From: a virus
Lineage: Duplodnaviria > Heunggongvirae > Uroviricota > Caudoviricetes
Virus record (IMG/VR): IMGVR_UViG_2721755728_000011
Length of the DNA: 64,000 nucleotides
Reading direction: 5' to 3' (one strand)
In this document: positions 901 through 61,091 of the stretch, one piece after another
Layout of the letters: every line of letters starts with the position of its first letter
Numbering within the stretch: the stretch's first letter is position 1
Notes under the pieces: model-generated
Databases searched by the model: none
Seen by the model: the letters and a program-made list of their open reading frames with translations, nothing else
Told to the model about the DNA's origin: nothing
Made by a program: the position numbers and the translations under genes

Positions 901-1394
901 TACTCCTCCTGCTGTAATTCCTCCTCATCATCCGCACCTGCTTCAGTCACCCGCAGGGCTATCTGATCGCGCAGATCATCAATAATGGACTGAACACGGC
1001 TCACAGCGGCAGGCTGCAGACCGCAGTCACGTTCCAGAATATCCGGTAATGTCTCCAGCACCTGCACGACCGCTTTTGCCCAGATGGCAAACTCCCGTCT
1101 GACATCACTGGCCGGAATGAGTTGTGCCGTTTCCTGTTCGAACTTAAGACGCTCACGTTCAGACTGATACCAGGCTTTGCGCTCATGCGCGTCCATTTCG
1201 CCTTCTGCAACCGGCGGTGGCAATGCCAGAAATGCCGACACAATATCAACCACCCGATAAAGCTTGAGGTTGCTTTCATGCCCCCCTGCAACGGGTAGAT
1301 TTTGCAGCCTTGCCGCAGCAGTCTGGCGATGTACACCTGACAGTGCCGCCAGTTGACTGATATTCAGCGTCAGATTTTTTAACTCTCGATCCAT
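900..1394 (-). CDS. Terminase small subunit (Nu1-like)
   Basis: 164 aa immediately upstream of and overlapping terL by 1 nt; N-terminal HTH-like region and acidic C-terminus; position next to a cos-like region. Confidence 0.55.
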   Translation of the reverse strand: MDRELKNLTLNISQLAALSGVHRQTAAARLQNLPVAGGHESNLKLYRVVDIVSAFLALPPPVAEGEMDAHERKAWYQSERERLKFEQETAQLIPASDVRREFAIWAKAVVQVLETLPDILERDCGLQPAAVSRVQSIIDDLRDQIALRVTEAGADDEEELQQEE

Positions 1395-30872: not shown

Positions 30873-32378
30873 TCATGGCATGGCCATGAGCATTTTCACG
30901 TCCGCATCACCGTCTGCTGACGTCTGTGGCACGCCACCCTGTACCGCAGCCGGTGAATGGTTCGCCATGATGCGTTCAAACAGGGCGGTTGTGGATGCAG
31001 AGACCGGTTCTGCCTTACCTGATCCCGCAGCCAGCACAGCCCGGGCGCTCTCCACAGTCATTCCCGGGCAGGCAGCCAGCTGTTCAGCCTGCGCCTCAGC
31101 CCCTTTTGCCTCATCCAGTGCCATGATCTGATCACGGAGTGAGGGTCCGGCATCCGCCTGCGGTGAAGCAGCCAGGATCGGGCGGGCTTTTTCCACCGTC
31201 ATCTCCGGCATCGCCGCCAGCGTTGCCGCCAGTTGTTCACGACCGTTCGCTTCTTCACACGCCATAATGCGATCGGCTTCACTCTGCGCGGATGCCACCG
31301 GCTGCTGCGGTGCCGCCGCGGCCAGAATCGCCCGGGCCTGTTCAACGCTCATGCCCTGTTGTCCTGCCAGCATCGTGGCAAGCTGTTCACGTCCTTTCGC
31401 TTCCTGGCATGTCAGGATCCCCATCACTCGCTGGTTCTCCTGCGCGGCGGCTTCCGTTGCAGTTAATTGCGGCATAGTGCCTCCTCTGACATTACTGTTC
31501 AGCGCCGTGGCCATCACACTGATGGCATCCGACGCATTGACTAATTCATCCGCCAGCCCGGCATCAATGCCGGACTGACCTTCAAAAACGGCGGCCTCTG
31601 TTCCCGTGACGGCATCAACAGACAGACCGGTAAACATCGCCACTTTTTCGGCAAACATCCGGCGCGCCGCATCAATGCGCTGCTGCATGTCCTGGCGAAC
31701 CTCTGCCGGTAAGGCTTCAAACTGATTGCCATCCACCTTGTGCGTCCCTGAGTAAATCAGCGTGATATCCACACCGGCCTGCGCCAGATGACCGGCATAG
31801 CTGACATGGCTCATCATCACGCCAATGGAGCCGATACGGGATGTCTGGGTAACCAGCCGTCGGGAGCAGGCCGACGCCAGCAGCATGGCTGCAGAACAGG
31901 CCGTGTCATTGCACAGTGCCCAGACCGGCTTCTGCTGACGGAGGCGGTAAATCATGTCAGCGCAGTCAAACGCGCCGGCGGCCTGCCCGCCCGGACTGTC
32001 AATGTCCAGCAGTACGCCCCGCACCTGGCTATCCGCCATTGCCTGCTGAAGACAGGCGACAATACCGTCATAGCCTGTCATTCCGGAAAATGGCCGCATA
32101 CCCCCCAGCCGGTGCACCAGCGTGCCGGTCACCGGCAGTACAGCAATACCGTTCACCACCCTGTAAACACGGGCCGGTCGTTTACCTCCGGCCATGTACT
32201 CGTCCGTTTCAGCCAGCATTCCGGGAGCATCAAACTGTACCTGCTGTTGTGGTACCGAAAGACTTGCTGCCCCCATCTCGCGCCCGAGCGCGCAAAAGAA
32301 AACCCGCGCATAGGCGGGCTCCAGAAGCAGCGGTTCATTGAATGCTGCGGCAATAATGTGTGAAAGATTACGTCTCAC
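30873..32378 (-). CDS. C: Head protease / scaffold C
   Basis: 501 aa, lambda C-like N-terminal S49 peptidase region, diverged repeat-rich C-terminus. Confidence 0.85.
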   Translation of the reverse strand: MRRNLSHIIAAAFNEPLLLEPAYARVFFCALGREMGAASLSVPQQQVQFDAPGMLAETDEYMAGGKRPARVYRVVNGIAVLPVTGTLVHRLGGMRPFSGMTGYDGIVACLQQAMADSQVRGVLLDIDSPGGQAAGAFDCADMIYRLRQQKPVWALCNDTACSAAMLLASACSRRLVTQTSRIGSIGVMMSHVSYAGHLAQAGVDITLIYSGTHKVDGNQFEALPAEVRQDMQQRIDAARRMFAEKVAMFTGLSVDAVTGTEAAVFEGQSGIDAGLADELVNASDAISVMATALNSNVRGGTMPQLTATEAAAQENQRVMGILTCQEAKGREQLATMLAGQQGMSVEQARAILAAAAPQQPVASAQSEADRIMACEEANGREQLAATLAAMPEMTVEKARPILAASPQADAGPSLRDQIMALDEAKGAEAQAEQLAACPGMTVESARAVLAAGSGKAEPVSASTTALFERIMANHSPAAVQGGVPQTSADGDADVKMLMAMP

Positions 32379-53871: not shown

Positions 53872-54414
53872 GTGGCTAAAAAAGGCGACTTTAAGCCTAC
53901 CCAGAAAGAGGTTGACCAAGCTATTACTTGCTTGAAAAAAGTAACTTTTAGCGGAGTTTCGTGGACCGGAAGTGAGGGACGAACCCCAATCTGGTTTAAA
54001 TTGGATCTCAAAGCTTTTGATGAAATTGGCAACCCAATCACAGGCATAAGATTTATGCTTCACTGGCGTTCTCCTATCGTTGAAGGGGTGGATATAGTGA
54101 AGCTTTCATTTGTGATGTTTCTTCATGACAGGCGCATTTACGCGCTTGACCCGTACCCTGCGCATAACAAGTCACACCGTAATAAATCTATAGTGCACCA
54201 TCCAGATTTTGTTGAGGTGGCTCGAGGTCCTCACTATCACATGTACTTCGAATCAGCTGGGGAAGAAATTGCACTCAAGCTTGAAACGAACATCAAGCCA
54301 GATGATTTTTTTGGCTACTGGAATTATTTTTGCGAGGCGCTTAATATCATATATGAAGGCAGCCCACCTTTACCGAATCAAGATAAATCAGGTCAGCTAT
54401 CATGGGAAATGTAA
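53872..54414 (+). CDS. Unknown protein (180 aa), first gene of the cI-downstream operon
   Basis: Co-directional with cI, 97 bp downstream; GTG start; no TM segments or recognisable motifs; lower GC than flanks. Confidence 0.55.
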   Translation: MAKKGDFKPTQKEVDQAITCLKKVTFSGVSWTGSEGRTPIWFKLDLKAFDEIGNPITGIRFMLHWRSPIVEGVDIVKLSFVMFLHDRRIYALDPYPAHNKSHRNKSIVHHPDFVEVARGPHYHMYFESAGEEIALKLETNIKPDDFFGYWNYFCEALNIIYEGSPPLPNQDKSGQLSWEM

Positions 54415-55178
54415 CGTGTTCAACAGTCATATCTAAGCTCGGGTTTGAATGCCACCCAATGAGCGACACGTTGCTGCGCGTTATTAGTCCCTTCACATAC
54501 TACGATGATTGTGAGCAGATAAGCGTATTCGTTCAAGAGATGAGTGGTCAGTATAGGGTTACAGACTACTGCGATACATTGATGAATATTGAATCACGCG
54601 GCATCCACCTGACTAAAAAGAAAATTGATCTGATCAGGTCATCACTCGCTTCGCAAGGAATTTCATTAAATGACTCTGGAGAGATATCTGCGTGGGCAGA
54701 TGAGTCGTCCGTTGGACAGGTAACTGCAAATGTTATTCGTGGTGGGATTCTTGCATCCGCCCAAACTGCTGATTGGTACGCTGAGGTCAAAGACGATAAG
54801 TTTGAAAAATGTGTAATCAGTTACTTAAAATCAGCAGGGCTTGGGAAGCGACTAGCCTTAAAGGAAAAAGTGAAAGGTATTAGTGGGCATAACATTACTG
54901 TTCCGTTAACGCTAAGGAATGAGTCTCGACTAATACCACCAAAACGCGGGTTTACGGTAAGCCTTGCCAGCAGTAAAGGATGGAATACTGCCCACTCAAC
55001 AGTTGGGAAGATTGTTGACTTAAGTCAGGTCGTTCCTGACATAAACAATAGATTTGTAATAGTTGACAGCGATGGGTTAACACCTGAGCTACAGCAACTA
55101 TCACTACTATTTAATGATACCGCACGAGTGTTGCCATTCCATACCAGAGACTCTTGGATTGACTCTCTGGTAGCCTAG
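54402..55178 (+). CDS. Unknown protein (258 aa), second gene of the cI-downstream operon
   Basis: Overlaps upstream ORF by 13 nt; followed by a strong intrinsic terminator; no recognisable motifs. Confidence 0.6.
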   Translation: MGNVTCSTVISKLGFECHPMSDTLLRVISPFTYYDDCEQISVFVQEMSGQYRVTDYCDTLMNIESRGIHLTKKKIDLIRSSLASQGISLNDSGEISAWADESSVGQVTANVIRGGILASAQTADWYAEVKDDKFEKCVISYLKSAGLGKRLALKEKVKGISGHNITVPLTLRNESRLIPPKRGFTVSLASSKGWNTAHSTVGKIVDLSQVVPDINNRFVIVDSDGLTPELQQLSLLFNDTARVLPFHTRDSWIDSLVA

Positions 55179-58975: not shown

Positions 58976-59154
58976 CGCATCCTCACGATAATATCCGGGT
59001 AGGCGCGATCACTTTCGTCTACTCCGTTACAAAGCGAGGCTGGGTATTTCCCGGCCTTTCTGTTATCAGAAATCCACTGAAAGCACAGCGGCTGGCTGAG
59101 AAGATAAATAATAAACGGGAGGCGGTATGCACAAAGCATCTCCTGTTGAGTTAA
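58966..59154 (+). CDS. Small lambda ea-region ORF (orf60a-like)
   Basis: 62-aa ORF overlapping exo end; position matches lambda orf60a. Confidence 0.5.
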
Positions 59155-59318
59155 GAACGAGTATTGAGATGGCACATAGCCTTGCTCAAATTGGAGTCAG
59201 GTTTGTGCCAATACCAGTAGAAACAGACGAAGAATTTCATACGTTAGCCACATCCCTTTCACAAAAGCTGGAAATGATGGTGGCGAAAGCAGAAGCAGAT
59301 GAAAGAGACCAGGTATGA
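59127..59318 (+). CDS. Small lambda ea-region ORF (orf63-like)
   Basis: 63-aa ORF; position as in lambda. Confidence 0.5.
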   Translation: MHKASPVELRTSIEMAHSLAQIGVRFVPIPVETDEEFHTLATSLSQKLEMMVAKAEADERDQV

Positions 59319-59395
59319 CAACCACTGAATGCATTTTTCTGGCAGCGGGCTTCATATTCTGTGTGCTTATGCTTGCCGACATGGGGCTTGTTCAG

Positions 59396-59610
59396 TGACA
59401 CCTCAGCAGGAAAACGCCCTTCGCAGCATTGCCCGTCAGGCTAATTCTGAAATCAAAAAAGCCAGACAGCAGTTTCCGGATAAAAACGTCGATGACATTT
59501 GCCGTAGCGTACTGAAGAAGCACCGCGAAACGGTAACGCTGATGGGATTCACACCGACTCATTTAAGCCTGGCAATCGGCATGTTAAACGGCGTTTTTAA
59601 GGAACGGTGA
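59396..59610 (+). CDS. Small lambda ea-region ORF (orf61-like; GTG start)
   Basis: About 71 aa from (M)TPQQENALRSIARQ...; track ORF begins further upstream. Confidence 0.45.
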
Positions 59611-59708
59611 ACATGAAAAGCAAAATCATCAGGGAGCTACAGGCTCCTTTTTTATTATTCGCATTTACCCTCAAGCGTATTAACCAACAATTCAGGGATT
59701 AATGAAAG

Positions 59709-59930: not shown

Positions 59931-60334
59931 GCGAAATTAACTCTCAGGCACTGCGTGAAGCGGCAGAGAAAGCCGGTGAAGATAAGTGGCAGGCTAAAAA
60001 AATAAATGGTGATTTTTTCGTTATTCGTCACGGTAGTTATACAAGACAGCATGGCTACACATCGTATCAACCCATTGCGGAGATTGATTGTAAGCCAGTC
60101 CGGGATTTTGTTGCCAAGGCTAATCCGGCTACCGTGCTGGAATTACTGGATGAACTGGAAGCAGCAAAAAAGCGCATTGCAGAACTGGAAGCGCGGGAAA
60201 TACTGCTCCCGGAACGTAGCAGCATGCTTCATCGAACAGATTTTCACGATGATTACCAAACGGTAATGGCATACAAAGTTTCTGAAGTCATCGATGCAAT
60301 CCGCGCTACTGGCATTCGCATCAAAGGAGAGTGA
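59927..60334 (+). CDS. Ea22-like protein (135 aa)
   Basis: Coiled-coil segment LELLDELEAAKKRIAELEARE; position in ea region. Confidence 0.45.
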   Translation: MSEINSQALREAAEKAGEDKWQAKKINGDFFVIRHGSYTRQHGYTSYQPIAEIDCKPVRDFVAKANPATVLELLDELEAAKKRIAELEAREILLPERSSMLHRTDFHDDYQTVMAYKVSEVIDAIRATGIRIKGE

Positions 60335-60335
60335 G

Positions 60336-61091
60336 ATGATTCACTACCACGGTGGGCCTATTACTCCTGATACGTGCGCAATGAGAGCATGGAAAGGGCG
60401 ACATGCGTTTATCAGTTTTGCGCATTCAGGCCAGATCAATCTCGCGGCTGAATACTGTCAGTCGTTCGCGCTGGACAACGGTGCATTCACCGCCTGGAAA
60501 GCAGCTGGCAAAAACAAAATCGACTGGAGCGATTACTACGAGTTTGTTGCTCGCTGGAAGAATCACCCAGGATTCGATTTTGCCATTATCCCGGATGTTA
60601 TTGATGGCGGAGAGGAGGAAAATGATGCGCTTCTGAATGAGTGGCCTCACGGAAAACTAGCTGGCGTTCCAGTGTGGCACATGAATGAAAGTGACGAGCG
60701 ATTTATTCATTTGTGCAATGAGTTTCCGCGAGTGGCTATCGGTAGTTGTGGCGACTATGACGTAAAGCGCCCAACTCTTGCGGTAGCCAGAATGAAAGAC
60801 CTGATTCGTCACATTGTTGATGGGCATGGTCAGCCGGTTACGAAACTACATGGATTGCGCATGTTAAATCCGCTGATATTCACAAAATTACCCTTAGCCA
60901 GCGCAGATAGTACGAACGTCGCTCGAAACATCGGTATTGATAAAGCCTGGTCTGGGGCTTATGCACCTGCAAGTAAAGAGACACGCGCAGCATTAATGGT
61001 AGAACGGATTGAGGCACACAATAGCCCTGGTTCTCTTGCGTATTGTGAACAACGCGACCGCTTTGAAATGCAATTGCAACTAGCACTTTAA
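60336..61091 (+). CDS. Hypothetical 251-aa protein; weak tRNA-guanine-transglycosylase/DpdA-like motif (speculative)
   Basis: Strong SD before ATG at 60336; motif SFALDNGAF loosely resembles the TGT TDSGGFQ motif; not confirmed. Confidence 0.5.
   Translation: MIHYHGGPITPDTCAMRAWKGRHAFISFAHSGQINLAAEYCQSFALDNGAFTAWKAAGKNKIDWSDYYEFVARWKNHPGFDFAIIPDVIDGGEEENDALLNEWPHGKLAGVPVWHMNESDERFIHLCNEFPRVAIGSCGDYDVKRPTLAVARMKDLIRHIVDGHGQPVTKLHGLRMLNPLIFTKLPLASADSTNVARNIGIDKAWSGAYAPASKETRAALMVERIEAHNSPGSLAYCEQRDRFEMQLQLAL

Follow-up and report, generated by a model that had tools for sequence, protein, structure and literature searches.

Between the orf63-like and orf61-like genes of a lambdoid prophage lies an ATG-started reading frame of 27 codons (hereafter, the mini-ORF) that overlaps both of its neighbours by four bases. 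Judging from its sequence and polymorphism, we believe that it is probably a real, coupled gene encoding a small hydrophobic protein, which belongs to one module with orf61 and would also feed ribosomes to it. The frame was found in the window, that is, the whole 64,000-nt stretch of DNA analysed, and is summarized with its surroundings in Table 1. The initial annotation had recognized this ATG ORF and its exact peptide, although with both ends one base too high (59316-59399), and it was right in describing a hydrophobic product of 27 aa, an overlap with the end of the upstream ORF, an end at the GTG start of the next gene, and neighbours resembling orf63 and orf61. It left undecided whether the frame encodes a small membrane peptide or merely reflects an artefact of coupling. 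The evidence presented here (a dN/dS of about 0.24, overlaps kept behind two unrelated upstream genes and a hydrophobic segment of 21 residues) favours real coding, and the coupling looks functional, not artefactual. A point that it had missed is that the mini-ORF sits inside the annotated lambda orf61 and inside the 93-aa frame called "orf61/ZapA" in other records.

The mini-ORF and its surroundings

The genes belong to the exo-xis block in the delayed-early pL operon of a lambdoid prophage; all are on the transcribed strand, and a cI-like repressor and a P22-type N lie upstream of the block. Between these last two, in the place of lambda's rexAB, there are two overlapping genes of 180 and 258 aa (53872..55178); the second one carries DUF1828 and weakly matches PDC-M24B, a candidate defence protein of PADLOC (E ~6e-7), and the pair may represent a prophage-encoded defence cassette. 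A 265-aa gene located after ea22 (60294..61091) had no Pfam or PADLOC match.

Table 1. Features of the exo-xis block in the window, with the mini-ORF and the sites discussed in the text
Feature	Position	Strand	Remarks
gam	57091	+	exo-xis context
bet	57513	+	exo-xis context
exo	58295	+	exo-xis context
orf60a	58966	+	DUF1317
orf63-like gene, 63 aa	59127..59318	+	Pfam DUF1382 (PF07131), E=7.7e-31; PDB 8dsb, lambda Orf63 chain, E=7e-33
Minus-strand ORF, 61 aa	59197..59382	-	antisense alternative
Weak purine-rich SD-like stretch GAAAGAGACCAGGT ahead of the mini-ORF	59301..59314	+	-3.9 kcal/mol
Mini-ORF, 27 codons MTTTECIFLAAGFIFCVLMLADMGLVQ plus TGA	59315..59398	+	ATG-started ORF
N-terminal extension of the 93-aa call	59329..59394	+	rejected: dN/dS ~1.9, five common variants all non-synonymous, no usable SD
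Transmembrane-like hydrophobic segment, residues 6-26 CIFLAAGFIFCVLMLADMGLV	59330..59392	+	21 residues, mean Kyte-Doolittle 2.42
C deleted in pGAWorf61_mut	59366	+	lambda 30957; first base of mini-ORF codon 18
orf61-like gene, 71 aa	59395..59610	+	GTG start here, ATG in most relatives
A6 run inside orf61	59455..59460	+	A7 in the lambda reference (L001 ~952..958)
31-aa ORF MNMKSKIIRELQAPFLLFAFTLKRINQQFRD	59607..59702	+	GTGA overlap on the orf61 stop
orf73	59709	+	TraR/DksA zinc finger
ea22-like gene	59927	+	exo-xis context
xis and lambda-type int	to 64000	+	end of block

At the upstream junction, the ATG of the mini-ORF overlaps the orf63 TGA (59316..59318) as ATGA (59315..59318) and, at the downstream one, its TGA overlaps the orf61 start as GTGA (59395..59398), two bases being common to both codons; in most relatives this second junction reads ATGA. 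The stop/start overlap with a gene on the same strand that defines coupled pairs is accordingly present at both ends, and the frame has a start codon with an initiation route (an ATG within ATGA) as expected of a small ORF, for which the route may be either an SD or coupling.

The predicted peptide has a GRAVY of 1.62, which places it in the top 1% (3/289) of the ATG-ORFs of 20-40 aa obtained mechanically from the window. Residues 6-26 have, on hydropathy, the length needed to span a bilayer, with a crude Hessa sum of ~0 kcal/mol. The net charge is -2, and both Lys and Arg are absent. The openness of the frame is by itself unremarkable: with both ends fixed, the frame stayed open in 34% of cases when the 76 interior bases were shuffled and in 43% when they were replaced by random 76-mers taken from the window. 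In contrast, only 0.2% of random fillers were both open and as hydrophobic as the peptide. Profile searches of the peptide against Pfam, PHROGs and NCBIfam yielded no significant match, the best profiles below threshold being PHROG 21538 "membrane protein" (E=0.68) and NCBIfam MtrF (E=0.034, below cut-off).

We also considered whether the region acts as nucleic acid. An Rfam search gave no match and the 131-nt mini-ORF region folded less stably than its shuffles (z=+1.9), and an RNA element was rejected on these two grounds. A leader peptide or attenuator was discarded on the same z value and because no terminator-like site lies between the mini-ORF and orf61. A search for promoter-like sites in or beside the mini-ORF on both strands disclosed none, the only match being on the minus strand at 59683..59654; a type I toxin-antitoxin locus was rejected because the frame lies within the pL operon, without a promoter of its own and without an Rfam match.

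Polymorphism by reading frame

Loci were drawn from IMG/VR, metagenomes, GenBank phages and E. coli genomes. Some contigs were entered twice, so that counts of loci are not fully independent, whereas those of haplotypes are. We calculated dN/dS from site and allele counts over 103 distinct haplotypes in a 965-nt alignment running from orf60a to orf73 (divergence up to 5.5%), because single-tree parsimony (754 events at 183 sites) was inflated by recombination. The interior of the mini-ORF frame showed a dN/dS of ~0.24 (9 synonymous and 7 non-synonymous, p=0.005), which resembles the values of the neighbour genes (0.22 in orf61, 0.30 in orf73, 0.31 in orf60a and 0.44 in orf63). When the same 76 nt were read in the plus-strand frame anchored at 59316 the figure was 0.58 (5 synonymous, 11 non-synonymous), and in the frame of the 93-aa call it rose to ~1.9 (2 synonymous, 14 non-synonymous). 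Frame conservation, proposed in the initial annotation as a check, is thus borne out for the mini-ORF frame.

The 340 loci bearing the ORF represented 36 distinct haplotypes of 84 nt, with 27 interior variants. By raw count, 12 of these variants were synonymous and 15 non-synonymous (p=0.026 in a simulation matched for transitions and transversions) and, weighted by loci, 379 synonymous occurrences were opposed to 44 non-synonymous ones. The five commonest variants, each present in at least 39 loci, were all synonymous in the mini-ORF frame and all non-synonymous in the 93-aa frame, and haplotype backgrounds were more numerous for synonymous than for non-synonymous variants (Mann-Whitney p=0.0006). 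Position 59326, just upstream of ATG 59329, illustrates this: its T, G and A alleles all encode Thr in the mini-ORF, and produce TGA, GGA and AGA (stop, Gly and Arg) in the 93-aa frame. In a 314-locus subset taken with a 131-nt probe, the peptide was identical in 270 loci, and the ATG and 26-27 codons were kept in 309. The amino-acid changes were mostly conservative (F>L, I>V, A>V/S, V>I/A, T>A), and no indels appeared in the mini-ORF save in one artefactual sequence. This sequence, an IMG/VR-derived haplotype of the 965-nt alignment, lacked a base at 59027, 59087, 59146, 59207, 59267 and so on, about every 60 nt, which looks like a line-wrapping artefact, and we excluded it. These results indicate purifying selection on the mini-ORF peptide, with p values of 0.0006 to 0.026 depending on the test and at a shallow evolutionary depth; since the family is shallow, the test rests on just 27 variants.

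Distribution and gene arrangements

The family is indeed shallow, with a DNA identity of at least ~92%, and confined to Escherichia. Of 183 matching phage records, 180 (lambda among them) showed 95-99% identity over the 541-nt neighbourhood, and a 221-nt core was found in 3,212 of 5,426 complete E. coli genomes, in up to five copies per genome and 4,383 copies altogether. A tblastn search of the peptide against 50,697 phage records (E up to 10) returned this family plus one chance match, and scanning IMG/VR with a degenerate back-translated pattern detected the same family only. A scan of genome contigs returned mostly lambda DNA contamination in unrelated assemblies. The matches in Shewanella, Bradyrhizobium, Pseudomonas, Paenibacillus, Kitasatospora, Oceanobacillus and others (L013-L026) are lambda-type sequence with aligned Orf61 segments 100% identical, and they extend over 214 nt for a query of 213 nt, the extra base being that expected of the lambda A7 run; they are almost certainly lambda DNA contaminating those assemblies. 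Two seemingly distant Orf61 matches (P0069 and P0075) proved to be frameshifted degraded copies and not divergent homologues, and the distant Orf63 homologues (a P1 variant, Enterobacter phage CobraSix, ZX5 and TL-2011c) had other neighbours and no mini-ORF.

Three gene arrangements were observed. In arrangement A (309 loci) the order is orf63, mini-ORF and orf61, as in the window. Arrangement B (27 loci) carries an N6-adenine methyltransferase gene in the place of orf63. BLAST homology to the window starts there exactly at the mini-ORF ATG, the methylase stop overlaps this start as ATGA, and a GGGAGG motif lies 4 nt upstream. This junction marks a module boundary at the mini-ORF start, with the overlap and a putative ribosome-binding site rebuilt in a foreign context. 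In arrangement C (for example, phage SfI and E. coli fS25a) another gene is followed directly by orf61, without the mini-ORF, and Orf61 begins with MTIEHNNALRS... at the equivalent Met, behind a GAGG of its own. Considering that arrangement C starts at the same Met, the length of Orf61 can be fixed at 71 aa. In one mini-ORF-less locus (L362 23..775) the gene directly preceding orf61 encodes a 250-aa relative of the protein encoded after ea22 in the window, annotated in SfI as a queuine tRNA-ribosyltransferase (DpdA-like).

The mini-ORF was followed by orf61 in all 79 distinct sequence contexts and was never found without it; the two travel together as one mosaic module. One counter-example is locus L012 (1780..2216, Escherichia sp. 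E1V33), a variant that falls 13 nt short of the mini-ORF region in length and in which a 355-aa DGQHR-type gene is coupled through ATGA to the 93-aa frame, behind a GGAGG. That locus may really produce an Orf61 with an N-terminal extension.

Translation signals

The anti-SD pairing energy ahead of the mini-ORF in arrangement A was -3.1 kcal/mol in lambda, -3.9 in the window and -5.1 in Stx2 II, and it reached -10.3 kcal/mol (GGGAGG) in arrangement B, the same value and motif as at the orf63 start. At the orf61 start it was -3.9 kcal/mol in lambda and -4.7 in the window, and -5.6 in arrangement C. No usable SD paired ahead of ATG 59329, the start of the 93-aa call. Because the anti-SD duplex of the mini-ORF is weak, we infer that initiation would occur mainly through ATGA coupling to orf63, and since the SD of orf61 is also weak, the mini-ORF would in turn hand ribosomes over to orf61.

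The simplest reading of these signals would be a relay from orf63 through the mini-ORF and orf61 to the 31-aa ORF. Ribosomes ending orf63 would reinitiate at ATGA and translate the mini-ORF, which in the methyltransferase context could also be initiated through the strong SD. The product would be a very hydrophobic, uncharged-to-acidic peptide of 27 residues, most likely a single helix in the inner membrane. Termination at the TGA overlapping the A/GTG would then pass ribosomes on to orf61, and the relay would end with a further reinitiation at GTGA for the 31-aa ORF. Were we to commit ourselves to one role for the peptide, it would be that of an inner-membrane single helix acting early after induction or infection.

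As to the 31-aa ORF itself, it contains a terminator-like hairpin followed by a T-run (59631..59649), has an equivalently located 33-aa homologue in Enterobacter phage CobraSix (L114 1304..1405) and displayed a dN/dS of 0.51, which was not significant. It is probably the 31-aa ORF detected by ribosome profiling and cited in PMC8614690.

Orf61 annotation and published mutants

Lambda encodes the identical peptide, unannotated, at complement(30925..31008) of J02459 (L001 814..897). The orf61 of the lambda reference (J02459 30839..31024) is a longest-ORF call in another frame that contains the whole mini-ORF. An additional A in the lambda reference (A7, against A6 in the window and most relatives) breaks the frame of the real Orf61 in lambda after 22 codons, which predicts a 29-aa product; on this comparison, the annotated 61-aa lambda orf61 joins a non-coding frame to the first 22 codons of Orf61. 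The gene calls in other records are of two types. Some take a 93-aa ORF from ATG 59329 ("ZapA"/orf61); others, including those of PGAP and CPT, take a 71-aa protein from the mini-ORF stop and leave a 76-nt blank. We rejected the mini-ORF region as the N-terminal part of Orf61 (PHROG 303), given that it shows no constraint in the orf61 frame and that Orf61 starts elsewhere at the internal Met. The PGAP name for Orf61, "cell division protein ZapA", derives from a Pfam match of 16.2 bits, below the cut-off of 23.8, and the C-terminal half of the protein (GFTPTHLSLAIGMLNGVF) displays a weak likeness to a single ankyrin-repeat motif (PDB 5y4d, E=3e-4, DARPins).

The mini-ORF was not called in the RefSeq and curated phage records examined. 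The exact peptide is present as a "hypothetical protein" in GenBank and UniRef (for example, A0A0A2SGE8_ECOLX) and in 981 contigs of the protein collection. A full-text literature search for the peptide string retrieved no paper, and the supplement of one paper on small membrane proteins did not contain it. The peptide is, then, sporadically predicted in databases and absent from the lambda reference and the exo-xis literature.

These positions bear on published mutants. In the lambda "orf61 frameshift" plasmid pGAWorf61_mut, a C was deleted in CTTCATATTCTGTGTG[C]TTATGC... (Table 1 primer in PMC4195576), and the mutated plasmid no longer accelerated phage development after induction with mitomycin C or H2O2 (PMC4195576). 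With this deletion, which maps upstream of the real orf61 start, the frame would continue beyond that start and yield 42 aa in the place of the peptide. Similarly, "orf61" has been swapped for a cassette in lambda and Phi24B (PMC6213356), and both deletions take out most or all of the mini-ORF. Considering the A7-truncated Orf61, the deletion at codon 18 and the loss of the mini-ORF in the delta-orf61 phages, it is possible, albeit as a tentative proposal that we would not call probable, that the 27-aa peptide and not Orf61 causes the lambda "orf61" phenotypes.

Lambda Orf61 has been described as apparently truncated, and residues 1-23 of the 93-aa Orf61 model stay outside the fold (PMC8614690); both points agree with the 71-aa reading. 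According to the same review, ribosome profiling (Liu et al. 2013) confirmed the expression of "orf61" and added two ORFs of 7 and 31 aa ("orf2311/orf2313"). Because the mini-ORF is wholly inside the annotated lambda orf61, any ribosome footprints over it would have been assigned to orf61.

Alternative explanations

Several observations speak against a real gene. As additional ORFs of the block from ribosome profiling, the review PMC8614690 cites only the 7-aa and 31-aa ones; the raw count is just 12 synonymous against 15 non-synonymous among the 27 variants; the SD is weak in the common context; a membrane anchor lacking Lys and Arg would be unusual; the peptide has no match among the family models; orf61 occurs without the mini-ORF in arrangement C; and L012 couples ATGA and GGAGG into the 93-aa frame. 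Among the other readings, the strongest is that the mini-ORF is translated only to move ribosomes from orf63 to orf61, its peptide being functionless and degraded. The four-base overlaps at both ends, the weak SD ahead of orf61 (-4.7 and -3.9 kcal/mol), the GAGG that orf61 owns where the mini-ORF is absent and the constant company of orf61 would all be accounted for. However, a pure bridge needs an open frame only and, therefore, amino-acid changes should be neutral, whereas the dN/dS is ~0.24 and non-synonymous variants, mostly conservative, are rare; moreover, coupling does not require extreme hydrophobicity. We thus regard a mere bridge as unlikely. It is more improbable still that the 76 bases are an untranslated leader of orf61 in which the open frame and overlaps arose by chance. 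Such a spacer would fit the 34-43% of random fillers that stay open, the weak SD in the main context, the ORF being uncalled in the RefSeq and curated phage records examined and the citation of only two extra ribosome-profiling ORFs in PMC8614690. It does not explain why polymorphism is codon-periodic and frame-specific, why the mosaic junction coincides with the ATG to the base and the second context has both ATGA and a strong SD there, why just 0.2% of fillers are open and equally hydrophobic, or why 309 of 314 loci retain the start codon.

The two remaining readings assign the region to another reading frame. That a 93-aa Orf61 takes its first 22 residues from the region (the "ZapA"/lambda orf61 call) has in its favour the many records annotating this form and the L012 gene that is ATGA-coupled into its frame behind GGAGG. 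Against it stand the dN/dS of ~1.9 with the common variants all non-synonymous in that frame, the absence of an SD before ATG 59329, the start of Orf61 at the internal Met where the region is absent and the position of residues 1-23 outside the fold in published models (PMC8614690), which together make it very improbable. As for a gene on the opposite strand, the minus-strand ORF was open in every locus checked, gave a dN/dS of ~0.26 and also had the common variants as synonymous. Yet this is the expected mirror image of a plus-strand coding frame, since the minus-strand ORF has its wobble positions in common with the mini-ORF frame, and it scores slightly worse than the plus frame. In addition, it is out of wobble register with orf63 over the two thirds of its length that overlap that gene, and in the methyltransferase context another sequence takes the place of its C-terminal two thirds (44 against 61 aa). 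The common variant at 59386 falls outside it, no promoter-like site or SD serves it, and its orientation opposes the pL transcript. We give this explanation the least credit of all, and a real coupled gene remains the reading that we favour.

Comparison with known systems and implications

Small single-helix membrane proteins of up to 50 aa are known in E. coli (the Hemm/Storz type), such as the 29-aa KdpF, and their ORFs are often missed by gene callers. As a candidate gene, the mini-ORF is like them in size, in its one helix-length hydrophobic segment, in its location within an operon and in having been missed by gene callers, and KdpF shares the lack of basic residues. It differs in that no partner membrane complex is encoded nearby and in being phage-borne and restricted to Escherichia lambdoid prophages. 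Termination-reinitiation at ATGA or GTGA couples overlapping genes in phage and bacterial operons. The mini-ORF matches this pattern in its four-base stop/start overlaps on both sides, on the same strand, and in the weak SD downstream; translation of orf61 may depend on it, as the weak SD of orf61 here and its own GAGG where the mini-ORF is absent would suggest. With the type I toxins (Hok, Ldr, Ibs, TisB, ShoB and DinQ), it has in common a length of ~20-50 aa and one dominant hydrophobic helix but, unlike them, it has no promoter of its own and no antisense RNA partner, lies in a polycistronic operon and lacks their typical basic residues. It belongs to the same operon and size class as the 7-aa and 31-aa "orf2311/orf2313" (PMC8614690), and the 31-aa ORF is the next link of overlap; unlike them, it is not among the ribosome-profiling ORFs cited in that review. 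Finally, with respect to the annotated lambda orf61 and the 93-aa calls in Stx phages, the DNA is the same and the reading frame is different, the annotated N-terminal part being without coding constraint.

The kind of gene proposed here, a small phage or bacterial membrane protein within a coupled operon, is already known. The locus would offer a clean and testable case of a three-gene ribosome relay (orf63, mini-ORF and orf61, then the 31-aa ORF). The exo-xis block of lambda, the reference temperate phage, affects the induction of prophages, Shiga-toxin ones included, and is still poorly understood. If the mini-ORF is a gene, the orf61 of the lambda reference would be wrong both in its frame and in its limits, structural modelling would have relied on a 93-aa Orf61 with 22 spurious residues, and the published phenotypes of orf61 frameshift and deletion mutants would be confounded by the loss of the peptide and would need re-assignment.
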